From IMG/VR virus record IMGVR_UViG_3300025398_000930: a stretch of 59,388 nucleotides of DNA. One strand, written 5' to 3'. The notes beneath the pieces are model-generated. The model was not told where the DNA came from, did not search any database, and saw nothing but the letters and a program-made list of their open reading frames with translations. Shown here piece after piece: positions 9,814 through 39,097 of the stretch (positions are counted from its first letter, which is position 1; each line of letters opens with the position of its first letter). This stretch comes from an uncultured virus (IMG/VR IMGVR_UViG_3300025398_000930). Lineage: Duplodnaviria > Heunggongvirae > Uroviricota > Caudoviricetes. The translations under genes were made by a program, and so were the position numbers.

Positions 9814-10618
9814 TTTGTAATATATTGTTATATATCCAATCTTCAGATAAAATGTAATTTTGTGCTAAGTCAAAATTTTCCTTTATTACAGCTTTTTTAC
9901 TATCATAATATTCCGGTGTACATAATTTAAGCTTTTCTTTTAAATCATATAAATCGTTAAAGATAATAAAACCATCTGTATTAAAAAAATTACCTATCGA
10001 CGGACAGCCCCAGTATATAGGAATTGCTCCGGTCATCAAGGTATCAATTAGCTTTTCTGTAAAATAAAAATCTCTTCTACAGTTTTCAATTGCAAAGTGG
10101 TATCTATAATCAGCTAAACCTTCTACCTTATGCATTGTATTTTTTACAAACTGCTTGTATCGTGGACCAAAAGCATCTATCTTATCTCCAGCAGCAGCTA
10201 TAATTTGATGTCTCAGTTGATGACCAGGTAATTGGTTTTTACTGGATGCAATGATTGAAAACATTTTAGTTTTATCGTAAATTTTTCTCTCATCCACCTC
10301 TAACCAGCAACCACCTACAGGGTACCACTTTGCATTAGGTAAATTTAAAAACTCTTTATCGTGCGTCCAGATTTCTTTATATCTGTTTGCATTTTGTCGC
10401 GCATAAGCATAAGGTGCAGGATTAATGTCGTGTGGTTCTAACAACCAGGCAATATTACCTTTATCTAATTGATAATCAGTACATATAACATCGGTTCCTG
10501 AGGGTGCTTCGTTACGATTCCATATTATGTGCTTTGAAAAACTGACCGGTGGTGTTGGGTTATTGCTAAATGCACAATGACCGAAATTAGAGTCTTTTAT
10601 GTATAATTCTTTTTTCAT
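9797..10618 (-). CDS. Glycosyltransferase, GT10 (fucosyltransferase-like)
   Basis: YRYHFAIEN....YFTEKLIDTLMTGAIPIYWG. Confidence 0.8.
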   Translation of the reverse strand: MKKELYIKDSNFGHCAFSNNPTPPVSFSKHIIWNRNEAPSGTDVICTDYQLDKGNIAWLLEPHDINPAPYAYARQNANRYKEIWTHDKEFLNLPNAKWYPVGGCWLEVDERKIYDKTKMFSIIASSKNQLPGHQLRHQIIAAAGDKIDAFGPRYKQFVKNTMHKVEGLADYRYHFAIENCRRDFYFTEKLIDTLMTGAIPIYWGCPSIGNFFNTDGFIIFNDLYDLKEKLKLCTPEYYDSKKAVIKENFDLAQNYILSEDWIYNNILQNEKTI

Positions 10619-11403
10619 ATTTTTAACCAGCTTTCTACCTGTAAATCTTTACCGTCTGATGGACCATCACTACCAAACCAAAGTTTAGGCATAACGACAA
10701 TTTTATTATCGTTATTATTAAGCCATGCACCCCACCATGAATAAGAAGAATTAGTAATAATATTATGATTGCATAAAGTCATCATAATAAAATCATCTAT
10801 ATCGCTTCTACCTTTCATAAAAAGAACCTTTTTACCGGTTTGATTAAACAGATTGACATTAGCTCTACACCAATCAATATCATCTGAAAATACTATATAT
10901 GTATTAACATTAGTACGGCTCTCTATTTCTTTTTGAGCGTTTACCCAATAATCTGCAGGTTGTTGAATGTGTATATTAGGGTATTTTAGATAATCGCCGC
11001 GGCGTACATGTATAGAACACGTATCACCTAAATTTGCTTGTAATAGTGCTTCTTTAACCGGTGCTACATACTCGTCTTTAAACGTAAAGTATTTACGAAT
11101 GGCTTCTATAGCTTGAGGTGTATTAAAGTATTTATCACTCTGAAAATAACCTTCAAGATATGTAAAATTAGTCTTTGATAGTGTTACAGGTGAATAATTA
11201 AAGCCTTGTTCTTTTACTACCTCACCTGGCCCAGGCGCTAAACCCGGTAACGCCTCTTTAAAGTAACGATTATTTTTCCATTCTGCAAAACCATATTTTA
11301 AATCACTACTAATAGCAATACCAATGGTGCTGGCGATCAAAAATAATTGATTACCAAATCTACCACCTTTACTGTCTACAATACCGAAATGAGTTACTTG
11401 CAT
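10615..11403 (-). CDS. Glycosyltransferase, GT11 (alpha-1,2-fucosyltransferase-like)
   Basis: GRFGNQLF, EGYFQS, SIHVRRGDY, FSDDIDW, NSSYSWWGAWL. Confidence 0.9.
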   Translation of the reverse strand: MQVTHFGIVDSKGGRFGNQLFLIASTIGIAISSDLKYGFAEWKNNRYFKEALPGLAPGPGEVVKEQGFNYSPVTLSKTNFTYLEGYFQSDKYFNTPQAIEAIRKYFTFKDEYVAPVKEALLQANLGDTCSIHVRRGDYLKYPNIHIQQPADYWVNAQKEIESRTNVNTYIVFSDDIDWCRANVNLFNQTGKKVLFMKGRSDIDDFIMMTLCNHNIITNSSYSWWGAWLNNNDNKIVVMPKLWFGSDGPSDGKDLQVESWLKI

Positions 11404-12191
11404 TTGTAAATATTTTTAAGTTTTTCTAAAACCGTTTCTAAAGGAGTGTCTTGGTTTTCTACAGCTGAAACCCCATGTAATTTTCTATAATAATCAGCAC
11501 CTTTTCTCATATTATCAGTCCATTTTTCAGTGTGGGTAATAGAACTATTTTGAATAGAACCAGGTATCTCTGTTAATATATCATCACTACCCTCAACATC
11601 AGGAAACCACCAAAACGCAGGTAAAAAGCCTTTTTTAATACCTCTTTGACATAGCTCTACATGTTCCCAGGCGTTTTTAAAATACTCATCATGTGTACCA
11701 ACTTCCTTAATATACTTCGGGTTAAAATAAGAAAAAGCCCCAACACTATGCATATTAAGAGCAACTTTAACGTTGTTTGGGTACTCTACTATATAGCGAG
11801 GGTTTGGCTTACTATAATCTGTTGTTCTATTAGCTGGCCCATGATAACCGAAATTTAAGTGCGTAATACCAGTAGCATTAGCTGTATCAATGTACTTTTG
11901 CCAAACATCTGATGTTTTAATTATGATATCATTTTCAATTAAAAATAAATGCTCACACCCTCTATTAAGTAAAGTACGAATTGCATTGTTTTTAGCTACA
12001 CCTACAGTCTGATAAGGTGGTCTATTATTCATTATCTCGATACCTTCAGGTAGTGTACCGTCTGGTATCTTAATACCATCATTAATTAAAATGATATCAG
12101 TTAATGGACCTTTATTTGCAAGAATACTTGCAACACACTGTTTAGTGTATTCCAATCTATCACACGCTATTACTGCTGCTCCTATTTTCAT
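11394..12191 (-). CDS. Glycosyltransferase, GT2-like
   Basis: ILINDG, GVAKNNA, FLIEND, VGTHDE..KNAWEH. Confidence 0.75.
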   Translation of the reverse strand: MKIGAAVIACDRLEYTKQCVASILANKGPLTDIILINDGIKIPDGTLPEGIEIMNNRPPYQTVGVAKNNAIRTLLNRGCEHLFLIENDIIIKTSDVWQKYIDTANATGITHLNFGYHGPANRTTDYSKPNPRYIVEYPNNVKVALNMHSVGAFSYFNPKYIKEVGTHDEYFKNAWEHVELCQRGIKKGFLPAFWWFPDVEGSDDILTEIPGSIQNSSITHTEKWTDNMRKGADYYRKLHGVSAVENQDTPLETVLEKLKNIYKCK

Positions 12192-18792: not shown

Positions 18793-19257
18793 ATGAGCAA
18801 ATTCGTATCTACTAAAGTAATTCCATTAGGCTCGTGCGCGTTCCGTCAGCCTTTTGCAGAAAGTCATTGTAAATTTATACACGGTTATCGCTTACAAGCT
18901 AAATTTTGGTTTGAAACCAATGTATTAGATCAAAACAACTGGGTAGTAGATTTTGGTGGTTTAAAAGGTCTTAAAACAATATTAGAGGATTATTTTGACC
19001 ACAAAACTGTTGTTTGGGTAAATGATCCAGAGTTAAATACGTTTAAGCGTATGGCAGATAAAGGTATGGTTGATTTAGTTATTCTTACTGATGGAGTAGG
19101 TATAGAACGTTTTGCTGAACTTTGCCACAAATTAGCAAACGATTATGTAGAAGAAATGACTAATGGACGTTGCTGGTGTGCTAAAGTAGAGGTTTGGGAA
19201 CACGAGCAAAATAGTGCCATTTATGAATCAGAACCAAGCGGTGGGTGGAAAAGCTAA
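18793..19257 (+). CDS. queD: 6-carboxy-5,6,7,8-tetrahydropterin synthase (QueD/PTPS family)
   Basis: SHCKFIHGY, WVVDFGGLK, FDHKT, VEVWEHEQN. Confidence 0.88.
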   Translation: MSKFVSTKVIPLGSCAFRQPFAESHCKFIHGYRLQAKFWFETNVLDQNNWVVDFGGLKGLKTILEDYFDHKTVVWVNDPELNTFKRMADKGMVDLVILTDGVGIERFAELCHKLANDYVEEMTNGRCWCAKVEVWEHEQNSAIYESEPSGGWKS

Positions 19258-19278
19258 TTTTACATACTATAATAAATT

Positions 19279-20085
19279 ATGAGCGATATTGATCCTAAAA
19301 CAACTCTATTCATTTCTGATGATTTCGTGTTCTATACATTAGAAGGCGAAGGCCGTTATATCGGTTACCCTTCAGTGTTTATGAGAATGGCTATGTGTAA
19401 CTTGACCTGTATTGGTTTCAAGAGTGATGACTCACCAAACGGTTGTGATAGTTACATTAGCTGGTCTAAAAAGAACAAAATGACGTTTGAAGAAGTAGCT
19501 CAGTTGTTCGAAAAGAACGATTACCATGAACGTTTAAAAGAAGGTGCATTACTTAAACTGACCGGTGGTGAGCCATTTATTCAGCAAAAGAACTTATTAT
19601 TATTTGTTAAGTTTATTAGAGATCGCTGGGGTTTTGCTAATTTCGGTAGAACGCTCACTTCTGATGATATTGGTAGACCACAGCTACATATTGACTTTGA
19701 AACTAATGGCACTATTATGCCAGATGAAGAATGGTCTCGTATTGGTTGTAAAGTAACTTATACTACCTCTCCTAAAATGTCTAATAATGGTGACCCAGCT
19801 GATAAACGCTTTAAACCAGAAGTATTACGTTATTTGGTAGTAAATGATGCATGCTTTAAGTTCGTAGCTAAACAAGAATCAGACTTAACTGAAGTGTTAG
19901 AGAACTATCTTAACAATCCTGACATTGGTTTACCTTCACAACAAGTATGGATTATGCCTATGTGTGGTAGTCGTAAAGAACTATTAGAGGTAGGACCTGT
20001 AGTAGCTGAACTCTGTAAGAAATATAATTTTAAATTCTCGAACAGAATGCACCTGCAGGTCTGGGATCGCGCACTCAAGGTTTAA
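19279..20085 (+). CDS. queE: 7-carboxy-7-deazaguanine synthase (radical SAM QueE)
   Basis: TLEGEGRYIGYPSVFMR..CNLTC...CDS, LTGGEP, ETNGT, SPK, RMHLQVW. Confidence 0.9.
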   Translation: MSDIDPKTTLFISDDFVFYTLEGEGRYIGYPSVFMRMAMCNLTCIGFKSDDSPNGCDSYISWSKKNKMTFEEVAQLFEKNDYHERLKEGALLKLTGGEPFIQQKNLLLFVKFIRDRWGFANFGRTLTSDDIGRPQLHIDFETNGTIMPDEEWSRIGCKVTYTTSPKMSNNGDPADKRFKPEVLRYLVVNDACFKFVAKQESDLTEVLENYLNNPDIGLPSQQVWIMPMCGSRKELLEVGPVVAELCKKYNFKFSNRMHLQVWDRALKV

Positions 20086-20088
20086 TAT

Positions 20089-20250
20089 ATGAACGACATT
20101 CCTGATCCTAAAAAACATAAAAACATTAGTATTATCAAAAGCATTATTCGTATTATTGCGGGTACTTGTCTTTGCTTTGGTGCTTTCTGGGTTACCGGTA
20201 TATTACTAATCGTAGCGGAAATACTCGGTATTATTGAAGAAATGGTATAA
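20089..20250 (+). CDS. Small membrane protein (53 aa)
   Basis: Below the track threshold; translated by hand as MNDIPDPKKHKNISIIKSIIRIIAGTCLCFGAFWVTGILLIVAEILGIIEEMV; fills the gap after queE exactly. Confidence 0.6.
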   Translation: MNDIPDPKKHKNISIIKSIIRIIAGTCLCFGAFWVTGILLIVAEILGIIEEMV

Positions 20251-20253
20251 TAT

Positions 20254-20481
20254 ATGAAACAAGAAATAAAATTCACATATACGTTAGAGCATACTAATGA
20301 CGATATTAATGTCAGTGTGCCTCGTAAGATTGAAATTATATTTGACGGTCAAGCCGACTTAGAGGAACTAACAGAGCAGTTTAACGCTTTTGTTAAAGCT
20401 ATAGGTTACAACCCACCTCACAATTGTGTACTTGATTGGGTAGATGTGGAAACCGGTCAACCACCTGAAGATGATGAATGA
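20254..20481 (+). CDS. Hypothetical protein
   Basis: ORF 75 aa, ...FNAFVKAIGY... Confidence 0.55.
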   Translation: MKQEIKFTYTLEHTNDDINVSVPRKIEIIFDGQADLEELTEQFNAFVKAIGYNPPHNCVLDWVDVETGQPPEDDE

Positions 20482-20518
20482 GGTTGCTAATATTAATGTA
20501 AAGCGTAAATTTTAATAA

Positions 20519-21229
20519 ATGAGCTCTTCTAAACTTAAAAAAGTCGGCATTATCGGTACTCAATGTGTGGGTAAGTCTACGCTTGTAGCAGATTTTAAAG
20601 AAAAGTGGCCAGTATTTGAATCCCCTACCAAAACATATAGAGATTTGGTTAAAAAGAAGAAATTACCTCTCAATAAAGAAGCCACTAAAGAGTCTCAAGA
20701 AGAAATTCTTAACTTTCTTGTTGACGAAGCTATGGCTAATTACGGTAAAAAGAAAATGATTTTTGACCGTACACCTTTAGATAATTTAGTATATTCATTG
20801 TATTTGTTCGATAAAGGGTTGGGTGGTATAGATGAAGAGTTTATCGATAAGTGCGTTGCGTTAGTTCGTAACGCAATGAGTTCATATTCTGTTATTTTTT
20901 ATCTACCATTCTGTAAAGAAAACGACGTGTTATTAACAGCAGCACCTAATAGAGATATAGATCCTGTATACCGTTCAGAGATTGGACATATATTCGAAGG
21001 GATTTATAAAGCCTGGGAAAAGGGTACGGGTACGCGTTTCTTTAATCATGATGACTGCCCACCAATTATTCCTATATTTGGTAGCAGACAAGAGCGTATA
21101 GCTATGATTAGTCTTTACATTAATGATAAGGGTGATTTATATGGTGAGGATGAATCCGTTGTCAAGGATTTCTTACAGCAAGAGTTCTTAGAGAAGAACT
21201 TGATAGAACCAATGAAAAAAATGAAATAA
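20519..21229 (+). CDS. P-loop nucleotide/nucleoside kinase-like ATPase (AAA_28/NadR/dNK-like)
   Basis: GIIGTQCVGKST Walker A; IFDRTPLD motif. Confidence 0.7.
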   Translation: MSSSKLKKVGIIGTQCVGKSTLVADFKEKWPVFESPTKTYRDLVKKKKLPLNKEATKESQEEILNFLVDEAMANYGKKKMIFDRTPLDNLVYSLYLFDKGLGGIDEEFIDKCVALVRNAMSSYSVIFYLPFCKENDVLLTAAPNRDIDPVYRSEIGHIFEGIYKAWEKGTGTRFFNHDDCPPIIPIFGSRQERIAMISLYINDKGDLYGEDESVVKDFLQQEFLEKNLIEPMKKMK

Positions 21230-21267
21230 AACTTGCCTTAAATTGTGTAAGTAATCATATTAATAGT

Positions 21268-21915
21268 ATGAATTTTAACAAGTTTGCAAATATCATTAAC
21301 GAGTCTTTAACGGTTGGTGAAGAAGTAGAAGGTCGTAATCCTAATGCTTCTTTTGCTGCATGGAAAGCAGCTAATCCTGAATTAGCTACAGGTCCAAGTG
21401 CATATTACCATTATAAGAAATCTCAAAAGGGCGATGTAACTCCAGTTGCTAAAGCACCAGCTGTAGCACGTGAAATTGATATTGATCCTCGCAAACAAGA
21501 AATCGTAGATCAGTTAGTTGATCAAGGTCTCACACCTCAAGAAATTTACAAGCATCTTGTAAACACACTTCCAGGTGAAACACCTTTCGAAGGTAGCCTT
21601 AAGGATGTAATGAGCATGGTAGCATTAGCTAAAGGTGAAGAAGGCGGAGAAGGTGGAGAAGTAGAACCTGAATTTAATCCAGAAGCTGAAAAAGCTGCTA
21701 AGATGGCTCGTTTACGTAAGTTCTTTATGAAGCCAAAAGCTGAGCGTGACCGTATTTTAGCTGCAAAACGTAAAGCTGCAGAGGTTGCTCCTAAGGTAGA
21801 TAAAGACGAAGATGAAGACGGGGTAGAAGCCGATCCTTATGTTTCCCATTATGTAAAGGCTATGAAAAAGAGCCCTTATGATGCTGATGAAACAGATCCA
21901 GTAGAGGTTGATTAA
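21268..21915 (+). CDS. Hypothetical acidic protein (candidate head-internal protein)
   Basis: ORF 215 aa; MNFNKFANIINES; TAAGTA upstream. Confidence 0.6.
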   Translation: MNFNKFANIINESLTVGEEVEGRNPNASFAAWKAANPELATGPSAYYHYKKSQKGDVTPVAKAPAVAREIDIDPRKQEIVDQLVDQGLTPQEIYKHLVNTLPGETPFEGSLKDVMSMVALAKGEEGGEGGEVEPEFNPEAEKAAKMARLRKFFMKPKAERDRILAAKRKAAEVAPKVDKDEDEDGVEADPYVSHYVKAMKKSPYDADETDPVEVD

Positions 21916-22367
21916 TTACCTAAGAACTTTTCAGTCAAAACAATAAACTTCATTCCTTTTTTAGCCGCGTAATCACTCGCGGCTTTCCATTTGCACTGAT
22001 TCTGGTGATACATTAGATTCTCATACAATACAGTGCTTGTTTTCTTTTTATTAGATTGTACTGGTGGTTGTGTTTGAGCAAAGGGCTTTACCTCAATAAG
22101 ATATTTTTGTGTGTTACCTTGTTCATCTTTAATTGCTGCAACTAAATCTACATAATAACGATGTACTTTTTTATCAACATCATTATAATAAGGCACTATT
22201 ATTGATTCACTTGCCCATGCAGTAACATTAGGGTTGGTGTCAAAGTAGTAAAAAAACTTACGCTCCAGTAACGATCTATATGAAGGATTTGTATTGCCAA
22301 CATACTTCTGTCTATTTATTGGGTTATAAACCCCTTGAATATATTTGCTATTTTTCGAAGCGCCCAT
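21912..22367 (-). CDS. gp4: Head completion nuclease (T4 gp4-like, TnsA-type fold)
   Basis: QGVYNPINRQKYVG...YRSLLE..F...D....V..WASE...PY...HRYYVD...EVKP...NQCKWKAA. Confidence 0.85.
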   Translation of the reverse strand: MGASKNSKYIQGVYNPINRQKYVGNTNPSYRSLLERKFFYYFDTNPNVTAWASESIIVPYYNDVDKKVHRYYVDLVAAIKDEQGNTQKYLIEVKPFAQTQPPVQSNKKKTSTVLYENLMYHQNQCKWKAASDYAAKKGMKFIVLTEKFLGN

Positions 22368-22386
22368 AACATATAATTACAACGTC

Positions 22387-23430
22387 GTGCCAATATCTCA
22401 AAATTTAGTTATTCGTACCTTTTTTCAATACTGTAAAAGACCAGTATTTAAGAAGAGTACTGGCACGTATGCAGGAGAATGTCCGTATTGTCATGAAGGT
22501 AAGAGTGCTGGCAGGAAACGTAGATTCTTTTACATACCAGAAGAGGATCATTTATACTGTCATAACTGTAATCAGAGTAAGAATGGATTGGACTTCGTTA
22601 AAGATAGAACAGGTATGTCAATGCATGAGATTCTATCTGAATCCGAAGTTCATGCAGATACAGTAGAAGATATTATTAAGAAATCATCTTTATACAAGAA
22701 GTTTAACCCTAAAGCTTTACCGGATGATAGTATAAACCTTTACGACAATAATCAGGTATCATTTTACAAAGAAAACCGTGTAGTACAGGATGCTTTAGCG
22801 TTTATCAATAAGAGACGCTTAGATACAGCTATTAACAAACCAAGAGCTTTGTGGTTAAGTTTAACTGACTACACACACAAGAATAGGGTAGTGTTTCCTT
22901 TTTATTCAGCAGATAGTACAGCTAAAGTGGAACACTATCAATCCAGGGCTTTATATAAAGAAGACGAAAACAAGGCAAAGTACCTTTCCAAGGCAAATAG
23001 TGAGAAGGGTGTGTTTAACTTAGATAAGATAGAGCCCGACCTTGAATATATATTCCTTCAAGAAGGACCTATTGATGCTATGTTTTTACGTAATAGTGTA
23101 GCATTAGCTGGTATTCATCCAACAGAAGAACAACTACACAAAATTACAACTAAGTTTCCTTTTCATAAAATCGTTTATGTATTAGATAATCAGTGGTTAG
23201 ATAGGACTTCTCATAAAGTAACCAAAGAGTTGTTAGATAAAGATCAATGTGTGTTTATCTGGCCTGAATCTCTTATTAGATTTAAAGACTTAAACGATCT
23301 TTGCGTGCATACCCAAAAAGACGAAATCAAACCTGATTTTATTATTAAAAATATGCATTGCGGTATGAAGGGGTTATTATATTATTCACAAATTAAATGC
23401 AAACAAAATAAAAACTTTATTAAAATATAA
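22387..23430 (+). CDS. gp61: DNA primase (gp61-like)
   Basis: Zinc finger CPYC...CHNC; Toprim EGPIDAMF, LDN, KDLND; start placed at GTG 22387. Confidence 0.9.
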   Translation: MPISQNLVIRTFFQYCKRPVFKKSTGTYAGECPYCHEGKSAGRKRRFFYIPEEDHLYCHNCNQSKNGLDFVKDRTGMSMHEILSESEVHADTVEDIIKKSSLYKKFNPKALPDDSINLYDNNQVSFYKENRVVQDALAFINKRRLDTAINKPRALWLSLTDYTHKNRVVFPFYSADSTAKVEHYQSRALYKEDENKAKYLSKANSEKGVFNLDKIEPDLEYIFLQEGPIDAMFLRNSVALAGIHPTEEQLHKITTKFPFHKIVYVLDNQWLDRTSHKVTKELLDKDQCVFIWPESLIRFKDLNDLCVHTQKDEIKPDFIIKNMHCGMKGLLYYSQIKCKQNKNFIKI

Positions 23431-24125
23431 TGCAGACAAGACTTATTGCAGTAACTCAGCCATTAATTAAAAGAATAGTCACACCAGAGGGCACTTTAAA
23501 CCAACCGTACTTAACCGCGGAGGAATTTATTGTGTACTGTGCCAGAGTAAGTAATCCAAGTAATCAAAATAACGTTGAAACAGGTCCACGGCTTTTGCGT
23601 TATTGCGTAAAAAACCACCACTGGAGTATTTTTGAACAGGTTTCCTGTACGTTTCAAATCATTACGTCCCGAGCTATTGCAGCACAAATATTAAGACACC
23701 GCTCGTTTACGTTTCAAGAGTTTAGTCAGCGTTATGCATCAGCAACAGATTTTGAACCTATTGAATGGCGTAAACAAGGTAAAACTAATAGACAAGCAGG
23801 AGATGAACCTGTTACATTATCTGAACATTTACAGTTTAACATAGAGCAGTTACAGCTACATATCAAAAATACATATGAACAGTTAGTAAAAGAAGGTGTA
23901 GCTAAAGAGGTAGCTCGTATGATACTACCTCTTAACACTCAGACCACTATCTATATGACAGGTACATTACGTAGCTGGGTACATTATCTTGATTTACGCT
24001 GTGCAAAAGAAACTCAAAAAGAGCATAGACTGATAGCTTTAGACATAAAAAAACGTCTCGAGGAAGAATTCCCAGAGACGTTTAAAGTGCTAAATGAGAT
24101 TAACGAGGCGAGTAAACGTCTTTAA
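23430..24125 (+). CDS. thyX: Flavin-dependent thymidylate synthase
   Basis: ARVSNP, HWSIFE, QILRHRSFTFQEFSQRY, EVARMILP. Confidence 0.95.
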   Translation: MQTRLIAVTQPLIKRIVTPEGTLNQPYLTAEEFIVYCARVSNPSNQNNVETGPRLLRYCVKNHHWSIFEQVSCTFQIITSRAIAAQILRHRSFTFQEFSQRYASATDFEPIEWRKQGKTNRQAGDEPVTLSEHLQFNIEQLQLHIKNTYEQLVKEGVAKEVARMILPLNTQTTIYMTGTLRSWVHYLDLRCAKETQKEHRLIALDIKKRLEEEFPETFKVLNEINEASKRL

Positions 24126-24927
24126 TCTTCTTTTCAGAAGTAATAACTACTGACTTAAACACTTCTGCTAAACCGCGTAGATTTTCAGCTAATTTAGTAA
24201 TACGCTTTTCTTCACGACGTACAATACCACGGAAAGGAACTGAATTCTTAATTTCTAATTGATTGATTTGAGTGTTTAAGCTTTCTGGCCCTGTACCGTT
24301 AATAAAGTGTGCCATCTCTTCAAGCTTTTGAATCCATTCATGAGCTGCTTGAATACCAGTTGTGTCAATAGTATGTTGTGGATTATCTGGTGTTTCAAAA
24401 TCTTTTGGATTTGTACCTTTGTCTAATGACTTTTCCCAAGCTGCTGTGTCATCGTTTTGTGCTGGTGCATCAGCTGCAGGGGCTTCCATTACATTTTCTT
24501 TTAATCCTTTTATGTTCTTTGCAAATTGTGCCATGTGCTTTACATGAGAATTTTTGCTATGTAAAGCTTTGTTTAACTTAGCTGCTGGAATCTTTTCACC
24601 TTGTTTTACATGTAATGCTTTATGTAGACCGCCTTTTTTAGCATGAGCATGCTGGATCCATTTTTTATCTTCTGGAATTGTACCAGTAGTATTGGTAATT
24701 TCTTTACCGTCTACTTTAGCCTTTTCACCTTTTTTAGTGCTATGTAATGCACCAGTAAAAGCATTACCTTCTTTATCTTCAGGTATTGTACCGGTGGTGT
24801 TAGTTACTTCTTTACCACCCACTTTAGCTTTTTCACCCTTTTTAGTATTGTGTAAAGCACCGGTAAAAGCATTACCTTCTGTTTCTTCACTAAGAGCTTT
24901 CAAAAATTTATTTGCAAACGTAGACAT
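24100..24927 (-). CDS. Hypothetical protein with a 36-aa tandem duplication and a basic His/Lys-rich module
   Basis: ORF 275 aa; TAAATA upstream; convergent overlap with thyX. Confidence 0.65.
   Translation of the reverse strand: MSTFANKFLKALSEETEGNAFTGALHNTKKGEKAKVGGKEVTNTTGTIPEDKEGNAFTGALHSTKKGEKAKVDGKEITNTTGTIPEDKKWIQHAHAKKGGLHKALHVKQGEKIPAAKLNKALHSKNSHVKHMAQFAKNIKGLKENVMEAPAADAPAQNDDTAAWEKSLDKGTNPKDFETPDNPQHTIDTTGIQAAHEWIQKLEEMAHFINGTGPESLNTQINQLEIKNSVPFRGIVRREEKRITKLAENLRGLAEVFKSVVITSEKKIKDVYSPR
24664..24879 (-). repeat. Two tandem in-frame copies of a 108-bp unit
   Basis: EGNAFTGALHNTKKGEKAKVGGKEVTNTTGTIPEDK / EGNAFTGALHSTKKGEKAKVDGKEITNTTGTIPEDK. Confidence 0.9.
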
Positions 24928-24953
24928 ATATACATATTATTTATCAAATCACA

Positions 24954-24981
24954 TTGAATTTTCTCATTTATAACTTAAAAT
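24954..24981 (+). promoter_or_regulatory. Sigma70-like promoter for queC and the amidotransferase gene
   Basis: TTGAAT-N16-TAAAAT, 6 nt before ATG. Confidence 0.6.
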
Positions 24982-24987
24982 ACACAT

Positions 24988-25710
24988 ATGAATAAAGCAT
25001 TAGTTATATTATCAGGCGGTATGGATAGCACTGTGTTACTACACTATGTAACTAAAACACTTAAGCATGATGAAGTATACGCCGTTACGTTTAATTATGG
25101 TCAACGGATTGCTCGAGAAATCGATTGTGCAAGGTTTCAAGCTAAAGCATGCAATGTTAAAGAGCATAAAGTCATTGATATGGATTTCTTTAGAGATATC
25201 TCTACTATGTCTGCATTAACTAATAAAGACTTAAAGATACCAAAAGCTAAAGATGATATTGGTAACGCTCAACCTTTAAGTTATGTTCCTTTTAGAAACC
25301 TATTATTATTAACGAGTGCAGCAGGTTGGGCTGAATCTATTGGTGCACAAGACCTGTTTTATGGTGCTGTAGAAACCGATGACTTTAGTGGCTATTGGGA
25401 TTGTACTTCAATGTTTTTAAATAAAGTTAATGACATTTACGGTCTTAATCGCAAGAATACTATTAAGGTTAATGCGCCGTTTATGCGTTATTCTAAAGAA
25501 GAAGTAATTAAGACTGGTATTGACTTAAAAGTAGACTTTAGACAAACACATACCTGTTACGAAGGTACTGATCCTGCTTGCGGTGAATGTGTATCGTGTG
25601 CTGCACGTATCAAAGGTTTTATTGACAACAAAGCTATTGACCCTATTAAATATTCACGTAATATTCCTTGGGAACAATACGATTGCAAACCTTTAACTTA
25701 TTTAACATAA
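24988..25710 (+). CDS. queC: 7-cyano-7-deazaguanine synthase
   Basis: LSGGMDS PP-loop, FNYGQR, YVPFRN, YWDC, THTCYEGTDPACGECVSCAAR zinc site. Confidence 0.93.
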   Translation: MNKALVILSGGMDSTVLLHYVTKTLKHDEVYAVTFNYGQRIAREIDCARFQAKACNVKEHKVIDMDFFRDISTMSALTNKDLKIPKAKDDIGNAQPLSYVPFRNLLLLTSAAGWAESIGAQDLFYGAVETDDFSGYWDCTSMFLNKVNDIYGLNRKNTIKVNAPFMRYSKEEVIKTGIDLKVDFRQTHTCYEGTDPACGECVSCAARIKGFIDNKAIDPIKYSRNIPWEQYDCKPLTYLT

Positions 25711-25711
25711 C

Positions 25712-26368
25712 ATGTGCGGTATAGCTGGTTCAAAATATAAAGATAAAGCTTTTAACCTGTACAAAGATAATCTTACAAGAGGTTATTATAGTTCAGGCGC
25801 ATTAACATTAGACTCTAATGATCAATACCACATACATAAAACTGAAGGTATTTTTAACGAACCTATAGACTATTTTAACCCGCCGGGTATAGACACTCAT
25901 GGTCGCTACTTTTTATATCATTCTCGTGGCCCTACTGTTGAAACAAAATCATTTGAAGCAATTAACAATCACCCGTTCACATATGGCGATTGGATTGTGG
26001 CTCATAACGGTATTATTAGTAATTTTGAGAGTTTGTGTAGAGAGTATTTTCCTGACGAAGATTTTACCGGTAGAACTGACAGTTGTATTATACCGCGTAT
26101 GTTAGAAATAAAGATAAAAGTATCAGAAGCTATGGAATCTCTTAAAGGTACATATGCTATATGGGCTTTTAATAACAAACACAAGAAAACTTACTTAGCC
26201 AGAAGTGCGAGTACATTATTTGCTAATCCAGTTACAGGGTGTTTTTCGTCTACCGAGTTTGAAGGTAGTGAATCCTTAAAAGAGGGAATTGTATACACAT
26301 TACAAGATTACAATAGTATAGTGCCTGCAGGTAGATTTAAGCACAAGTCTCCATACTTTGTATTCTAA
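25712..26368 (+). CDS. Class II (Ntn) glutamine amidotransferase
   Basis: N-terminal MCGIAG, HSR.PT, NNHPF, AHNGII, TDS; starts 1 nt after queC. Confidence 0.85.
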   Translation: MCGIAGSKYKDKAFNLYKDNLTRGYYSSGALTLDSNDQYHIHKTEGIFNEPIDYFNPPGIDTHGRYFLYHSRGPTVETKSFEAINNHPFTYGDWIVAHNGIISNFESLCREYFPDEDFTGRTDSCIIPRMLEIKIKVSEAMESLKGTYAIWAFNNKHKKTYLARSASTLFANPVTGCFSSTEFEGSESLKEGIVYTLQDYNSIVPAGRFKHKSPYFVF

Positions 26369-26378
26369 GTATAGGGAA

Positions 26379-26747
26379 ATGGCTTTAAGAAAAACATCAG
26401 ACCGTAATACCGCTATAGACTATATTAACAGGGATATAGTTAACGTAAAAGAAGATCTTGCCAATATTAGTAAGATTGTACGGGATGGTAATGGCCACCC
26501 AAGTTTAATGCAACAAGTTGCAACAATTAATAATGACTTGTTACATTTAAGAGCAGAAATAGATAGTCGCTTTAACGAAAACCGTGACTTAATGGAAGTA
26601 TATCACAACGAAATATACACTACTGTAAACAAATGCGAGGCCAAACATAAAGAAAAGCAAGGCTTACATTGGCACATGCAAACAGCTATTTGGGTTGCTT
26701 TAATAAGTAGTGTTACCGATCTTTTAATTCATTTTTTCGGTAAATAG
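26379..26747 (+). CDS. Hypothetical coiled-coil protein with a C-terminal hydrophobic helix
   Basis: Start placed at ATG 26379 after TAAGTA; ends TAIWVALISSVTDLLIHFFGK. Confidence 0.5.
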   Translation: MALRKTSDRNTAIDYINRDIVNVKEDLANISKIVRDGNGHPSLMQQVATINNDLLHLRAEIDSRFNENRDLMEVYHNEIYTTVNKCEAKHKEKQGLHWHMQTAIWVALISSVTDLLIHFFGK

Positions 26748-26787
26748 AGTAGATTTGTTAAGAGAAGTAGCTATACTCTTCTTATAT

Positions 26788-27051
26788 ATGAAGGGTATAC
26801 AATTAACTATAGAAGAAAAACAACTACTGGTAGAAGCTTTATTATTTTCCAGCATTACAGATATCTGTGCAGAGTGGACACCAAAACAAAATCAGATAAT
26901 GGTTGATCTTGCTAAGAAACTCAACAATACTGACGTTAAACTTAACAACATTTATTTGTTTGAGGGTGGCCCGTTTGACAATCCGGTGTTAGCTGAGAAC
27001 ACTAAGAAAGCATTTACCAATCTTCCTTGCAGTAGTGTTATTACTGACTAA
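26788..27051 (+). CDS. Hypothetical protein
   Basis: Start placed at MKGIQL (26788), after TAGATT-N16-TATACT. Confidence 0.5.
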   Translation: MKGIQLTIEEKQLLVEALLFSSITDICAEWTPKQNQIMVDLAKKLNNTDVKLNNIYLFEGGPFDNPVLAENTKKAFTNLPCSSVITD

Positions 27052-27731
27052 TGAACGTATATCTTAGTTTTTGTTCTACCGCTACTTCGTATTCTGATTT
27101 AAAAAACAGAAATAAAAACACTATTGTAAACAGCGAAAGTTTAAATGGTGTTACAGTTACAAACGGGGTTTTTAATAATAAAACCTCTATAGCTAAAGTT
27201 TATAACTCTTATATTGATACATACAAAAATGAAGACTGTATATTGGTTTTAGCTCACGATGATGTTCTTATTACTGATAAGAACTGGTTAACTAAAATTA
27301 AACAAGGTCTTGACAAGTACGATGTAGTAGGGTTAGCTGGTGGTAGTGACGCTACTATCAGACAGCCTTGTTTATGGCACATTATGTGTCCAAGAGATAC
27401 TCATAGCGGTACGGTAGGTCACACCATAGACAATAAAACATTTAAAACACACTTTGGTAAACCAGGTAGGGTATTATTGCTTGACGGTTTGTTTTTAGCA
27501 TTCAACCCTAAAAAGATCGCTGCTGCTGGAGTTAGATTTGATGAATCGTGCCCGGCTAAGTTTCATTTTTATGATATTGATTTTAGCTTACAGTGTAACA
27601 AAGCTAAATTAAAACTCGGTACCTTTAATATTGACGTTATACATGCCTCTCCTGGGCTTAAATCTTACACTAAAGATTGGCTTGATGGTCAAGACTGGTT
27701 TATAAACAAATTTAACCGTGGAGAATATTAA
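27051..27731 (+). CDS. Glycosyltransferase, GT2-like
   Basis: SIAKVYN, LAHDDV, VVGLAG, LDGLFLA, FDE...FHFYDID. Confidence 0.75.
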   Translation: MNVYLSFCSTATSYSDLKNRNKNTIVNSESLNGVTVTNGVFNNKTSIAKVYNSYIDTYKNEDCILVLAHDDVLITDKNWLTKIKQGLDKYDVVGLAGGSDATIRQPCLWHIMCPRDTHSGTVGHTIDNKTFKTHFGKPGRVLLLDGLFLAFNPKKIAAAGVRFDESCPAKFHFYDIDFSLQCNKAKLKLGTFNIDVIHASPGLKSYTKDWLDGQDWFINKFNRGEY

Positions 27732-27752
27732 AATTTATATTAACATACAATT

Positions 27753-28334
27753 ATGATTATTACAGACCAAAAAATATACAACGGCGATTTCATACACAAG
27801 CGTTTTGCTTATAAGTATTTTAGAGATCGTACTTTACCTATCGGTAATATTGTTAGCTTTGTTGCTCCGGTTGAAGTAACTATTAATCTTATTGATTTAG
27901 AAGACTCATTAGAGAAGGATTATATCTATAGTGATTCTATGATTAACTTCTGTTGGGAAATACCTAACTTAGACCCGTTTGGTGCAGTATGCTTTCAGCG
28001 CTTATTTAACACCTCAATAGCTAATATTCTTCATAAGATTATTAACAAGCCTATTGAAATGAAGGGTGATGATATTATGGTGCATGCTGAATTTACACAA
28101 GGCGGAGTAGTACAACAAAAAGGCAAAGCATCAGTTAGTATTACGTACTCAAAAGACAATGTATCTATTGGACACACCGGGGTTAACTTAGTAGCCGGTA
28201 AACAAGCACCTGCATTTGCTTTTAGTACAAATTTAACTCCAGAACAAACAGTTAAATTCCAGAATGCAGTTATTGATCAGTTTTATAGCATGGTAGACAA
28301 TATTTTTATTGCTACAACTAAGATTACTGTTTAA
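27753..28334 (+). CDS. DUF366-like protein (biotin/lipoate ligase-like fold)
   Basis: Y.G..IH..FAY......GNIVSF..P..V....IDLED......IYSD.M..F..E, FQRL, GDDI, GKASVSI, GHTGVN; family recognised from memory. Confidence 0.65.
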   Translation: MIITDQKIYNGDFIHKRFAYKYFRDRTLPIGNIVSFVAPVEVTINLIDLEDSLEKDYIYSDSMINFCWEIPNLDPFGAVCFQRLFNTSIANILHKIINKPIEMKGDDIMVHAEFTQGGVVQQKGKASVSITYSKDNVSIGHTGVNLVAGKQAPAFAFSTNLTPEQTVKFQNAVIDQFYSMVDNIFIATTKITV

Positions 28335-28735
28335 TGTTCGAATATTTAAACAAAATACTTTTTAAGACTAAGGGACTTGATACTTCTAATATTGACGAAG
28401 TAAAAGAGTTTCAACCTTATTTGATACAGCGGTGGTGCTCTATGTATTCACCGCAAGTATCTAATCTTGTTAACCAGACAAGCAATAGAGTGTGGCCAGT
28501 ATTAGATAATAATACTGCATGGTTTAATTATTTACATGGAGTTATACCTGCATGTAAATTTAAACGCACTTCTTATATAAAGAAGAAAAAAGAAACTGAA
28601 TCCGTTACTAATAGTAAACAAGCTGTAAAGACCCTTGCCAATCACCTTGAAATTTCAGCAAGAGAAGTAAATCAATATATAGAATTATTTAATTTAAAAT
28701 TACCAAATGAAAAAAAGCCTACAACACAAGATTGA
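28334..28735 (+). CDS. gp62: Clamp loader small subunit (gp62-like)
   Basis: MFEYLNKI...FQPYLIQRWCSM...N..N...YIKK...LA.HLEIS.RE...Y. Confidence 0.65.
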   Translation: MFEYLNKILFKTKGLDTSNIDEVKEFQPYLIQRWCSMYSPQVSNLVNQTSNRVWPVLDNNTAWFNYLHGVIPACKFKRTSYIKKKKETESVTNSKQAVKTLANHLEISAREVNQYIELFNLKLPNEKKPTTQD

Positions 28736-32660: not shown

Positions 32661-32815
32661 TAACAGGTACGTCGACTTGGCCAAACATGGGCGGTTATGT
32701 TGCTACAAGCTTTAATACAGACCATACTGCTGCATCTGCGACAGCTCCTTTTACGGCTTATAGTTCTACTTTACCATTTTTCCAAATACTCGGTACAACA
32801 ACAAAGCAGTGGTAA
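32654..32815 (+). pseudogene. Open frame resembling the 3' remnant of a structural gene (or a 42-aa ORF from ATG 32687)
   Basis: YLITGTSTWPNMGGYVATSFNTDHTAASATAPFTAYSSTLPFFQILGTTTKQW*; codon style matches the neighbouring virion genes. Confidence 0.35.
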
Positions 32816-32849
32816 TTTAACAAATCCAGTATATAATAACGTTTAACAG

Positions 32850-32857
32850 TGTAAATA
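32850..32857 (+). promoter_or_regulatory. Late promoter-like motif for the portal gene
   Basis: TGTAAATA, 6 nt before ATG. Confidence 0.5.
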
Positions 32858-32863
32858 TTAACA

Positions 32864-34675
32864 ATGGCTGACAACGTACAACCCAATTTCTTTACAAGGT
32901 CATTTAACAACCTTGTTAATAGGTTACCGTATACAGGTAATAATCAAGTAATTAACAACGTAAAGGAATTAAACCCTAAGTTTGAAGATTTCTATAAGAT
33001 AGGTAGTTCTGCTAAAGAAAAAGTATACAAACAGGCAGTATCTACCGCACAAGATAATCCAATGATTCCTTCTTTAGAGGGAGTTGTCATTAATAAAGCA
33101 TATCATGATTACCTTTATGCGTTAGTAGATACAGATAAACCAAAGCGTATTGCTGATTATCGTGTTATGGCTTCTTATGCAGAAATTAGTCATGCACTGG
33201 ATGAAATTTCAGATGAATTTTTAGTAAAAGATGAAAAAGGAAAGTACATAAACTTAAAAGTGTCTGAAGGTAAAGACGAAGTCATTGTTAAAGAACTACA
33301 AAAGAACTTTCACAGTTTAATTGAACAGTTTAATTTAGAGAATAAAGGCTTCGAGTACATTAGAGCAATTCTTATTGATGCTGAGTTGTTTTTTGAAAAC
33401 GTAATTAACGAGAACAAAAAAGACGCTGGTATTATTGGTGTTGTTCAAATACCTACAGAATATATTAACCCTATATACGATAACATTCAAAATATGTTAA
33501 TTAAAGGGTTCTTATTGCGTAAACCTAAAATCGATATAGATACAAACAATAGATACACAACAAAACAAGAATTAATACCTTTAGAGCGTCACCAGGTTAC
33601 GTATTTTCATTCTCATGTATGGAACGAACACAAAACGATTCGTTTACCATATCTTGAAGTGGCACGTAGAGCATATAAACAATTAAGCTTAATTGAAGAT
33701 AGTATTGTTGTTTATCGTTTAGTTAGAGCACCAGAGCGTTTAGTATTTAAAGTAGACGTTGGTAATATGCCTGGACCTAAAGCAGAAGCGTATATGAAGC
33801 GCTTAATGCAAAATTACTGGTCTCGTAGAACATACGACAACGATCAAGGTGCAAATGTTAATGTGTATGATCCACAATCCATGTTAGATAGCTATTGGTT
33901 TGCAAAAAGACCAGATGGAAGTGGTACAGATGTTACACAACTACAAGGTGGTGCAAACTTAGGTCAATTAGATGATTTAAATTACTTTGTTAAGAAGTTA
34001 TATAAAGCCTTACGTGTACCAACAAGTCGTTTAGATCCAGAAGCTAAGTTTGCTGATGGTACTGAAATTTTAAGAGAAGAACTTAAGTTCGCTTTACTTA
34101 TTATACGTTTTCAACGTCAATTTGCTTCTACATTAAAAGAAACGTTTATATCGCATTTAAAGTTAAAAGGTTTGTGGGATCAGTACAAGCTTAAAGATCA
34201 CGATATTAACGTTGCATTTAACCCGCCTACGTATTTCCATGCTGCAAGAGAAGCTCAAATACATGAGCTAAAGTTTAAGACATTAAGCGATATTATTCAA
34301 ACAGAAGCTGTATCAAAATCATATGCTTTAAAGAAGTATATGAACTGGACAGACGAAGACTTAAAGGTTAATAGAGAGTGGCAAAAGAAAGATGCTGCCT
34401 TTACGTTTGAATTAACTCAAATCACTAATGCTGGTACTAACTGGCGTCAAGGTATTACCGGTGGTGGTGCAGCAGGTAGTGAAGGTGGCGGTGGCGGTGG
34501 GAGCGGCGGTGGCACACCTCCAGCATTTGGTCCTGGACCGGGTGGTGGTGGAAGCGCATTACCACCTCAAGGTGGTGAAGCACCAGCGGGCGGTGAAGCA
34601 CCAGCAGGTGGAGAGGCTCCAGCAGGACCTGAAGCAGCGGGCGGGGCACCAAGCGCACTTCCAGGCGCTCAATAA
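32864..34675 (+). CDS. gp20: Portal protein (gp20-like)
   Basis: YRVMASYAEI..ALDEI, QLSLIEDSIVVYRLVRAPERLVFKVDVGNMP..KAE, SMLDSYWF, LYKALRVP.SRL, EILREELKF; Gly/Pro-rich tail. Confidence 0.95.
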   Translation: MADNVQPNFFTRSFNNLVNRLPYTGNNQVINNVKELNPKFEDFYKIGSSAKEKVYKQAVSTAQDNPMIPSLEGVVINKAYHDYLYALVDTDKPKRIADYRVMASYAEISHALDEISDEFLVKDEKGKYINLKVSEGKDEVIVKELQKNFHSLIEQFNLENKGFEYIRAILIDAELFFENVINENKKDAGIIGVVQIPTEYINPIYDNIQNMLIKGFLLRKPKIDIDTNNRYTTKQELIPLERHQVTYFHSHVWNEHKTIRLPYLEVARRAYKQLSLIEDSIVVYRLVRAPERLVFKVDVGNMPGPKAEAYMKRLMQNYWSRRTYDNDQGANVNVYDPQSMLDSYWFAKRPDGSGTDVTQLQGGANLGQLDDLNYFVKKLYKALRVPTSRLDPEAKFADGTEILREELKFALLIIRFQRQFASTLKETFISHLKLKGLWDQYKLKDHDINVAFNPPTYFHAAREAQIHELKFKTLSDIIQTEAVSKSYALKKYMNWTDEDLKVNREWQKKDAAFTFELTQITNAGTNWRQGITGGGAAGSEGGGGGGSGGGTPPAFGPGPGGGGSALPPQGGEAPAGGEAPAGGEAPAGPEAAGGAPSALPGAQ

Positions 34676-35563
34676 CTACCCCATAAAAAATCCGGGGGGT
34701 TCTTGATCCTCTTGACGTGTGTTCATTAACTGATCTTCAAGGTCTTTCTTTTCAGTAACACCTTGTGTCATTAACGTATCATATTGTAGTGTACCACTAC
34801 CAAATAATTGTGTACCGCTGAATTTACCACGCGTATTAGCGATATTAATCTTTATAAGTGCTTTAGCATACTCCATTACCCAGCGCTCTTTAACAAGATC
34901 TTTAATAGGTCTTTCTACTCTACAACTAACTGTAGCCCAATACCGATCAGTATTAGCTGCTACTACTGGATCTGGTGTAATACGTAAAACTTGAGTACGT
35001 GGATCAAATCTAAAATAAGGTTGTTGTGCAAACACCTTTTCACGAGTCTTTAACCAGTCTTTTAAGATGTGCCACGAAATAACGTCAAACGCCTTACTAC
35101 CTAAACTATAAGCAAAGTGCATTTGTTGTGCCATTGATTGTTCAATAGTAAACAGTGTGTTAACACCGTTATTAGTACCAACAGTAAATGAAGTAACATC
35201 GATTACTTTTCTGTAATCGTTTAAATCGACATCCCAACCAGATTGAAATGTAGAACTCAAGGCAGATACTTCTGGGTTTAAAGTATTATTAATAAGTGTG
35301 TCCATTCTTATACCCTGACCGCCTGTATAGAGATTGCTATCAAATACGATTAGTTCTTCCGTACCTGGAGTAAACTTTGTATACATTTCAATAGCATATG
35401 CAATCATGTCATATGCTGCCACGCACGCAATTTCAAGGTTAATTACAGGTGCACCGAGTTGAAAGAAGATACGCTCTGCAAGCATATCATAGCTTTTAAT
35501 TCTACTATTTAAATTAGTAGATAGAAAGTCTGCAGGACCTACAGTGCTGGAAGGATTAGCCAT
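34676..35563 (-). CDS. gp13: Neck protein (gp13-like)
   Basis: LGAPVINLEI, RWVMEYAKALIK......RGKFSGTQL.G.G, ending PPGFFMG. Confidence 0.8.
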   Translation of the reverse strand: MANPSSTVGPADFLSTNLNSRIKSYDMLAERIFFQLGAPVINLEIACVAAYDMIAYAIEMYTKFTPGTEELIVFDSNLYTGGQGIRMDTLINNTLNPEVSALSSTFQSGWDVDLNDYRKVIDVTSFTVGTNNGVNTLFTIEQSMAQQMHFAYSLGSKAFDVISWHILKDWLKTREKVFAQQPYFRFDPRTQVLRITPDPVVAANTDRYWATVSCRVERPIKDLVKERWVMEYAKALIKINIANTRGKFSGTQLFGSGTLQYDTLMTQGVTEKKDLEDQLMNTRQEDQEPPGFFMG

Positions 35564-35574
35564 ATCGCTAATAC

Positions 35575-36048
35575 TTACTTAGCATCTAATAATTTTAATA
35601 AGGTGTCCATTACTTCTTGAGCACTAACAAATGCATCTTGAATATAATCACATTGTTCCCACAACCAAAATTGCTTTTCTCTTAGATAACGCTCACTCTT
35701 TAACATATTAAGGTTACGGGTATATCCAAAGATTTTAGGGTCTGATTGACTGAATATAACAATACCTCGTTTGAGTTTATAATATGCACATAGATGTTGT
35801 AAGAAACTATCTACAGATATCCAAGTATCACTCTCATTAACAAGGTCTTTTATTTGAGTTAGAGACAAGTTTTGCCTAAAATCTGTTACTCCCTCTACTA
35901 CTACATCTTTGGAAGAGCCTATTTGAACAACCTTGATACCAGCATTATTCATTAACGCTACTAATTCTTTCCAATATGGAAAGTTCTTAGGGTTTGTATT
36001 GCCGTTGCGTAAAGCTTGGGCGTATGGACTTATTAGTACTTGTTTCAT
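35575..36048 (-). CDS. GT9 (heptosyltransferase-like) C-terminal domain
   Basis: LISPYA...KNFPYWKELV...VVQIG...DFR..LSL.....L....WISVDSFLQHL. Confidence 0.7.
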   Translation of the reverse strand: MKQVLISPYAQALRNGNTNPKNFPYWKELVALMNNAGIKVVQIGSSKDVVVEGVTDFRQNLSLTQIKDLVNESDTWISVDSFLQHLCAYYKLKRGIVIFSQSDPKIFGYTRNLNMLKSERYLREKQFWLWEQCDYIQDAFVSAQEVMDTLLKLLDAK

Positions 36049-37094
36049 GTTGCGTATGCTACTTTATAGGCTTCTGTTAAAGATTTTTTCCAATTCATGT
36101 GATCCATCCAAGCATATATATTATACTCTTCTACTTTTACAAATGCTGCACAGTCCGCTAAGCTTATTACTTCAATACCTTCTTCCCCCTCAAAAACAGC
36201 AGGGTAACAAGCACCTATAACAAGTTTTGCGTGTTTGTGTTTTTCTTTTATAGCAGGTAATGCGCTTCTAAAAGCATAGTGATCACCAATACCGCTATCT
36301 AATGGAATAACCTTAACAGGTTTAGTTTTTATATTCCATTTTTTAATATATTCTATGAATATATTTTCATCATCTTGAAACTGTTTAATTTGATTATCAC
36401 TTCTAATACCGCCAGCCCCATAACGCATGTGCCAGGTCTTAACCCTGGTCAATACTACTAATCTCCATCCTGCTCTTTTCATTTCATACGTGAAGATTGT
36501 TTCTTCTCTATGACCTACTTTAGATAGTCTTAAATCGTAGCCGTGTTTGCCTGCTTCTCTACGGAACAAAAATGTACTACCCTGTAAATGGTCTACATCT
36601 ATATAGGAATGGGTGTTTGTATCACGCCACTGTATATTCATACCTAAAAATATGTCTTCTATTTTATTAGAAGCTAATTTATGACCGATATCTGCTTTAG
36701 GGTCTAATATAAGCGGTCCTACCGCGCCAATCTTATCATCTGATTGTATATAATTAAACAAATCTGATAATGTGTTTGTTTCCATTACATTATCATCATC
36801 TAAACGCCATATATACTCTGAGGTAACATCAGTTAGTGCTTGCTGGTGATTCCATATTTGACCTTTACGTGCACCAGGCTTAACTTCCCAAACCATGCCC
36901 ACTCTATTCATAAGAGTGAACAGATTTCTATATATTTCATTATTTCTTAAATCTTCCATTACGTCATTATCATCATATATGATGAGACGGTAAGGTTTAA
37001 GTGTTTGATTAGCTAACGACGTTAGCACTAATGGTAGTGTTGTATTGAACCTACCTTTAGTAGAAACTGTTGCTGTTACTTTATCTGTTATCAT
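36045..37094 (-). CDS. GT2 glycosyltransferase fused to a GT9-like N-terminal domain
   Basis: IIYDD, WRLDDD, GHREET in the GT2 part; C-terminal LDSGIGDH....ALPAIKEKH..AKLVI. Confidence 0.7.
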   Translation of the reverse strand: MITDKVTATVSTKGRFNTTLPLVLTSLANQTLKPYRLIIYDDNDVMEDLRNNEIYRNLFTLMNRVGMVWEVKPGARKGQIWNHQQALTDVTSEYIWRLDDDNVMETNTLSDLFNYIQSDDKIGAVGPLILDPKADIGHKLASNKIEDIFLGMNIQWRDTNTHSYIDVDHLQGSTFLFRREAGKHGYDLRLSKVGHREETIFTYEMKRAGWRLVVLTRVKTWHMRYGAGGIRSDNQIKQFQDDENIFIEYIKKWNIKTKPVKVIPLDSGIGDHYAFRSALPAIKEKHKHAKLVIGACYPAVFEGEEGIEVISLADCAAFVKVEEYNIYAWMDHMNWKKSLTEAYKVAYAT

Positions 37095-38167: not shown

Positions 38168-38172
38168 GCTTT

Positions 38173-38200
38173 ATATTATGATAGTCCATAGAAAAAGCAA
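38173..38200 (-). promoter_or_regulatory. Sigma70-like promoter for the GT2/GT9 operon
   Basis: TTGCTT-N16-TAATAT, 5 nt before ATG. Confidence 0.55.
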
Positions 38201-38226
38201 GGAGTTACATAAATAATATAAGCAAC

Positions 38227-38886: not shown

Positions 38887-38887
38887 T

Positions 38888-39040: not shown

Positions 39041-39077
39041 AATCTGGATATTAGTCCTGTTTTTTAACATCATTTTA

Positions 39078-39085: not shown

Positions 39086-39097
39086 TAACTATCATAT

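Follow-up and report, generated by a model that had tools for sequence, protein, structure and literature searches.

DUF366 as a likely partner of the QueC step of preQ0 synthesis in an uncultured T4-like phage

The DNA analyzed here is a stretch of 59,388 nucleotides from an uncultured virus of the Caudoviricetes (IMG/VR record IMGVR_UViG_3300025398_000930), called the window below. It carries genes for the synthesis of 7-cyano-7-deazaguanine (preQ0), together with a gene of the DUF366 family. preQ0 is the common precursor of queuosine, archaeosine and the deazaguanines of phage DNA, and its final step is credited to QueC alone. An earlier note on this DNA had proposed that DUF366 and an adjacent glycosyltransferase (GT) jointly decorate a deazaguanine, giving a base not yet described. 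The present analysis points to DUF366 as a likely overlooked helper of the step from 7-carboxy-7-deazaguanine (CDG) to preQ0, and not as an enzyme that makes a new base. The window makes up the right half of a virus contig of 121,388 bases, G000 (estimated completeness 57%). G000 belongs to a large T4-like phage, whose genes include UvsW-, gp46/47-, primase-, gp62-, gp15- and capsid-like ones. The following genes of the window are considered, with window coordinates:

18793..19257, plus strand: queD, 6-carboxytetrahydropterin (CPH4) synthase (PF01242, phrog_2389; CxxxHGY motif at residue 26; 40% identity to QueD of Flavobacterium phage immuto_2-6A)
19279..20085, plus strand: queE, CDG synthase of the radical S-adenosylmethionine type (CX3CX11C motif; phrog_2076, E 1e-41)
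20519..21229, plus strand: kinase 1, P-loop protein resembling deoxynucleoside monophosphate (dNMP) kinases (AAA_28; phrog_2107, 'thymidylate kinase')
24988..25710, plus strand: queC with altered pocket motifs (PF06508, E 6e-62; TIGR00364 over cut-off)
25712..26368, plus strand: stand-alone class II glutamine amidotransferase (GAT), likely ammonia donor (GATase_6/7)
27051..27731, plus strand: GT-A glycosyltransferase, a core gene of the clade (PF13712)
27753..28334, plus strand: DUF366, protein with the fold of biotin protein ligase (BPL) and LplA, likely partner enzyme of the QueC step (PF04017)
28334..28735, plus strand: gp62-like clamp loader small subunit (phrog_225), outside the pathway

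The positions and families given earlier for the first seven genes were all verified, and the catalytic N-terminal cysteine reported for the GAT is accompanied by HxRxxT, NHP, HNG and TDS motifs. These seven genes are spread over 9.5 kb and do not form a single cluster, queE being separated from queC by head-completion, primase, thyX and other unrelated genes. The case for an early-type promoter common to most of them proved weak: 52 sigma-70-like sites were counted between 18300 and 30000, versus 45.9 ± 7.5 in shuffled sequence. A looser pattern, picked post hoc, was found for three of the seven genes (queD, kinase 1 and queC) versus 2.3% of random windows. The gp62-like gene is the fixed downstream neighbour of DUF366 (80/80 close loci).

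The DUF366 protein matched PF04017 with 69.3 bits (gathering cut-off 29.9). Its structural model, with a predicted local distance difference test (pLDDT) score of 96 from a 96-row alignment, was compared with the PDB by Foldseek. It matched 2DDZ with a TM score of 0.82, and all remaining matches listed were LplA, BPL or lipoyltransferase, in agreement with the biotin/lipoate-ligase-like fold that the earlier note gave for this family. The protein 2DDZ of P. horikoshii, whose structure was solved in 2007, belongs to the same family (PF04017; profile E 4e-40); however, identity is 21%, the phage protein comes from a virus-rich subfamily, and the 2DDZ entry bears no assigned function. The catalytic-domain fold is shared with LplA/BPL (1X2G, 2EJ9, 1WNL; TM 0.47-0.61), but identity is 10-18%, DUF366 is shorter (193 residues versus 220-340 for the matched chains) and its context is preQ0 synthesis instead of cofactor attachment. 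Thirteen residues are invariant in 28 QueC-linked DUF366 proteins (G11, D48, D51, E69, Q82, R83, G105, D106, D107, K125, H141, N145 and K190), and the alignment contains no conserved cysteine. The Asp-Asp, Lys and GxN elements among them (GDD105-107, K125, H141, N145) may correspond to the adenylation-site residues of BPL/LplA. A literature search for DUF366, COG2029 or PF04017, which did not extend to subscription journals, found no paper, and the name 'DUF366' is absent from the main text of PMC13329287 (as distinct from its supplementary neighbourhood table).

The fate of these 13 residues follows that of QueC. Among QueC-positive phage contigs, all 13 were kept in 19 of 20 and 11 in the remaining one, five of the 20 having been part of the alignment that picked the sites; in a held-out check on bacterial loci, 52 of 58 had all 13, with a minimum of 11. 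The QueC-negative phage contigs keep just three or four (7/7). They represent two lineages with one complete genome each. In the complete genome of the first, G029 (248 kb), QueC, QueE, GAT and DpdA3 were all not found. PF04017 gave no match there, but phmmer recovered a decayed homolog at the same site before gp62, with the DxED loop lost and 4/13 residues left, so the blank did not mean gene loss. The second lineage has the order dpdL (putative)-kinase-dpdA3-GT-decayed DUF366-gp62. Its DUF366 copies retain 3-4/13 residues, and its contig L448 gave no match at the DUF366 site. The complete member of this lineage, G077, has QueE and the dpdL-kinase-dpdA3 genes of the type found in Cellulophaga phage phiST, while QueC is missing and DUF366 decayed. 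Two single-gene FastTree trees joined G029 to a lineage that has QueC and an intact DUF366 (support 0.69 and 0.93) and separated it from the DpdL lineage; the decay therefore likely arose twice. Because residue loss matches QueC loss in two lineages, DUF366 is placed at the QueC step and not with QueE, DpdA3 or GT, and we regard its action at this step as quite probable. The two losses, though few, likely separate QueC from the other three as the partner of DUF366.

Two genes that adjoin each other in phiST are matched by the first and third genes of the DpdL lineage, at 41% and 37%, and its putative DpdL bears the HRH motif that PMC10516641 describes for this enzyme. phiST, whose DNA contains 2'-deoxy-7-deazaguanosine (dDG) and which has DpdL and DpdA3, resembles this sister lineage of the window phage in being without QueC, whereas the window phage encodes both QueC and QueF. 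The gene order of this sister lineage, from dpdL to gp62, was observed at L412:5782-8877 (G072) and on L449 (G077), where dDG is predicted as in phiST.

A second line of evidence comes from gene neighbourhoods. The bacterial sample consisted of the best 80 of 538 confirmed DUF366 loci, from half of the collection and with a query biased to one subfamily, and up to 6 kb was fetched per locus. DUF366 adjoins queC in 61 of these 80 loci, queE in 47 and any of queC, queD or queE in 72, most frequently in the order queD-queC-DUF366-queE-folE. A tRNA-guanine transglycosylase is encoded in 38 of 40 DUF366-operon genomes chosen for spread, so the bacterial operon likely serves tRNA queuosine. Of 17 viral loci from the other DUF366 subfamily, three of which look like a single phage, 14 have a gene of the que, folE2 or dpdA3-like kind at most one gene away. 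Over 27 long DUF366 phage contigs, QueC was found in 22, DpdA3-like proteins in 20 (five of which contributed to building that profile), QueF in 14 and GT in 12; all four near-complete contigs have QueC. The co-occurrence of DUF366 with que genes was thus borne out in bacteria and in unrelated phages. A replacement of QueC or QueF by DUF366 was rejected, as DUF366 occurs together with both. Co-occurrence in the 80 closest viral loci was also discarded as evidence of linkage, because the entire 20-gene block is syntenic there and the loci are uninformative on this point. The sole 'phage' record matching DUF366, MW495066 (L004), was set aside for its bacterial-chromosome gene context: labelled a Microcystis phage, it has secDF, glyS and fliM around the match. 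The archaeal evidence consists of two control genomes and 2DDZ. A PF00156 phosphoribosyltransferase was seen inside the que-DUF366 clusters of unrelated phages (L149, L150, L151, L155, L160 and L162); immuto_2-6A likewise has one near dpdA3.

The QueC of the window is itself a variant. The motifs YxQxHxxE and YPDC are those defined for QueC cluster 1 in PMC13329287; the window protein departs from them with YGQRIARE and YWDC, and keeps SGGxDS (SGGMDS), VPxRN (VPFRN) and the zinc-cysteine segment TCY..CGECVSC. Its relatives have YWDS or FWDG, and the DUF366-linked bacterial proteins have F[PS]DN and have lost the motif histidine (22/22). The residues described as essential in E. coli QueC, Y35, R99, Y131 and Y189 (PMC13329287), are all retained in the window QueC, which therefore deviates less strongly than its bacterial counterparts. 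The catalytic motifs of the GAT are invariant in eight homologs. Since these motifs are kept and the gene is absent together with QueC in G029, the GAT likely feeds ammonia to the QueC step. A QueC-DUF366 complex prediction scored 0.00 and was used neither for nor against an interaction.

On these grounds the following scheme can be proposed. GTP would be converted to CDG by FolE, QueD and QueE. In its ligase pocket (GDD105-107, K125, H141-x-G-x-N145), DUF366 would adenylate the carboxylate of CDG and hand the activated CDG to ammonia, drawn from glutamine by the stand-alone GAT, to give 7-amido-7-deazaguanine (ADG). The variant QueC would then dehydrate ADG to preQ0, which QueF would reduce to preQ1, the 7-aminomethyl derivative. 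Finally, DpdN would formylate preQ1 and DpdA3 would exchange the product for guanine. The exact division of the chemistry among DUF366, GAT and QueC in this scheme is tentative.

The first step and the last ones rely on genes that lie on G000 outside the window, 20-31 kb upstream of queD:

G000 49410-50069, minus strand: folE
G000 57505-58425, minus strand: queF, bimodular (motifs ESKSMKLY and SNC)
G000 58415-58990, minus strand: kinase 2, in the dpdA3 cassette, paralog of kinase 1
G000 58993-59571, minus strand: dpdN, short formyltransferase (PF00551 over cut-off; 44% to immuto_2-6A YP_010114479)
G000 59795-60601, minus strand: dpdA3, 268-residue product (49% to the DNA guanine transglycosylase of immuto_2-6A over 268 residues)

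The statement of the earlier note that no dpdA or folE is recognisable holds inside the window; it does not hold for the contig, on which a search of the remaining genome found both. G000 thus encodes FolE, QueD, QueE, QueC, QueF, a short DpdN beside dpdA, and DpdA3, the last being also 40-41% identical to Campylobacter phage homologs. The order dpdA3-dpdN-kinase-queF is that of immuto_2-6A (identities 49, 44, 37 and 42%), and the cassette recurs in both close and distant members of the clade. In immuto_2-6A every G of the DNA is replaced by the formylated preQ1 base fdPreQ1, according to PMC10516641, where the role of DpdN is a prediction. Because this cassette stands on the same contig, the phage DNA probably carries the known base fdPreQ1 in place of guanine. 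Both phages have FolE, QueD, QueE, QueC, bimodular QueF, DpdN and DpdA3 (37-58% identity). The immuto QueC, however, has YPDC where the window QueC has YWDC, and immuto is without DUF366 and without a match to the window GAT or GT; moreover, the base was measured in immuto and is predicted for the window phage. Gene content suggests that the clade switches among routes predicted to give fdPreQ1, routes predicted to give dDG and no route at all. Taken together, fdPreQ1 as the base and DUF366 working with QueC toward preQ0 form the combination that we favour on balance.

Several observations weigh against this combination. immuto_2-6A, in which neither DUF366 nor a stand-alone GAT was found, forms fdPreQ1 regardless, and among 11 control genomes whose QueC scored over cut-off, 9 gave no DUF366 match; DUF366 is therefore not universally needed. 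The window QueC, with its four essential residues kept, may perform both steps alone, and GAT plus QueC could make archaeosine (G+) instead. The QueC-negative set comprises two lineages only, with five of its seven contigs 9-27% complete, and the overlap of five QueC-positive contigs with the site-picking alignment, mentioned above, belongs here as well. Finally, the decayed DUF366 copies have kept both their site and a full-length reading frame, which suggests a second, non-catalytic role of DUF366.

In a different view of the protein, it is tied to QueC and does not form the amide, but binds, channels or proofreads CDG-AMP or ADG, or activates the variant QueC. The same QueC co-occurrence data, the retained decayed copies, the lack of a conserved cysteine and the short length for a ligase are in its favour; with Asp-Asp/Lys/GxN elements among the conserved residues, which presumably line the BPL/LplA adenylation site, we consider it unlikely. 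The coupling of a class II amidotransferase to QueC also recalls the Gat-QueC of Enterobacteria phage 9g, which with DpdA yields 2'-deoxyarchaeosine (dG+) (PMC6884629). If QueC and the adjacent GAT were a split Gat-QueC making archaeosine, the DNA would contain dG+, alone or mixed with fdPreQ1. The GAT weakly matches an amidotransferase of Pantoea phage Vid5 (E 3e-4), and DUF366 directly precedes a fused Gat-QueC in G019. Unlike in 9g, however, the window genes are two separate open reading frames (ORFs) in reverse order, queC first. The window QueC fits phrog_1550 (E 2e-63) far better than the fusion family phrog_10428 (E 5e-22), and the clade-conserved QueF and DpdN would compete for preQ0, which makes a split Gat-QueC improbable.

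Two further alternatives concern the GT and the kinases. The GT could glycosylate a deazaguanine, or preQ1 before its formylation, with or without DUF366, giving an undescribed base. It lies among replication genes, beside pathway genes in three arrangements: next to gat in distant clade members (8/8), next to dpdA3 in the DpdL-lineage contigs (10/10), and after queC, gat and two ORFs in the window. A hydroxymethylase of the thymidylate synthase type was not found in the three complete relatives, so that no hydroxymethylcytosine or hydroxymethyluracil acceptor is evident. On the other hand, a GT of 48% identity is retained in G029, where a thymidylate kinase and a GT4-like gene flank it and QueC, QueE, GAT and DpdA3 are missing, which argues, for one lineage, against a need of the GT for deazaguanine. 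No GT ortholog was found in the 13 unrelated DUF366 phage contigs, the 80 bacterial loci or 50,697 phage records including immuto_2-6A. Judging from their structures, neither fdPreQ1 nor dDG offers a free amine or hydroxyl group on its side chain, and 13 of 30 other scanned ORFs of G000 also match GT families, two of them under cut-off. We therefore give glycosylation of the base little chance, and equally doubtful is the reading that would join it to a three-protein preQ0 module (variant QueC, DUF366, glutaminase) in a widespread uncultured T4-like clade. As to the entry of the base into DNA, DpdA3 might exchange it at the nucleotide level, the kinases supplying modified dGTP to the polymerase in place of a post-replicative exchange. 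A gene resembling dNMP kinases lies within two genes of dpdA3 in immuto_2-6A, CP220, G000 and the DpdL lineage, the P-loop of kinase 1 is lost in its ortholog of the pathway-less G029, and a gene of the inosine monophosphate dehydrogenase (IMPDH)/GMP-reductase family lies inside the cassette of G007. In DpdA3 phages the replacement is complete, and tests of DpdA3 in E. coli were unsuccessful (PMC10516641). The same article, however, proposes that every DpdA inserts the base after replication, the dGTP diphosphohydrolase of G000 is present in just one of 13 other genomes, and G029 has a reductase-family gene though without the pathway; the nucleotide-level route seems rather unlikely to us.

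The joint decoration of a base by DUF366 and GT, as first proposed, was not supported by these comparisons. No dpdA3 or GT homolog was found within the fetched sequence of up to 6 kb near DUF366 in the 80 bacterial loci, DUF366 residues decay with the loss of QueC though QueE, DpdA3 and GT persist, and a complete relative that lacks the pathway still has the GT. All eight distant clade members share the arrangement recA-queC-(0-2 opposite-strand genes)-gat-GT-gp41, and their DUF366 gene stands apart from it, in front of gp62, while in the subclade of the window queC-gat-GT stands beside DUF366; a DUF366-GT pair was therefore rejected, and the GT likely has a separate core function. Its model (pLDDT 80) has the GT-A fold, with majastridin 2QGI as best PDB match (TM 0.64), and its DxD-like motif HDD69-71 is invariant. 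A literature search for a glycosylated deazaguanine or a pre-replicative DpdA3 route brought nothing on point by title. A Pfam scan of 97 ORFs of the complete clade member G006 (95 of 139 unlabelled ones plus two others) gave no TET/JBP match and two generic 2-oxoglutarate-Fe(II) oxygenases; this genome also has a Tubulin/TubZ-like gene (L423:2426-3532). The GT-family matches counted above belong to a large glycan gene set (window 1981-12191, 35575-38167 and 41741-42436; G000 32772-39365), which includes a UDP-galactopyranose mutase and likely serves virion or host-surface glycosylation.

Kinases 1 and 2 both belong to phrog_2107, and kinase 1 is 26-27% identical to the kinases of immuto_2-6A and CP220. 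As a kinase stands at or near dpdA3 in those phages and in the DpdL lineage, it is not new to this phage. The dATP/dGTP diphosphohydrolase (PF18909; window 9499-9813, minus strand) was rejected as a fixed pathway member because of its rarity. The IMPDH/GMP-reductase-family gene of G007 lies between dpdN and the kinase (L331:5400-6371), with similar ORFs on L332, L333 and L335. In G029 (L393:59-1863), the GMP-reductase-family gene is accompanied, in the vicinity of thyX, by a gene for DUF5662, a family present in phages with other modified purines. The tetranucleotide CTAG is absent from the 121 kb of G000, versus about 300 expected, and from 20 kb of G001; it is strongly reduced in L149, and 15 other viral loci have it at a normal or mildly lowered frequency. 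Its absence suggests a host nuclease acting at CTAG and unblocked by modification of G.

The main value of these results lies in DUF366 as a likely unrecognised partner of the QueC step, the base itself being likely a known one. The two QueC-less phage lineages serve as natural knockouts for its placement. If this placement is true, many bacteria, methanogens and phages would make preQ0 by a two-protein route.

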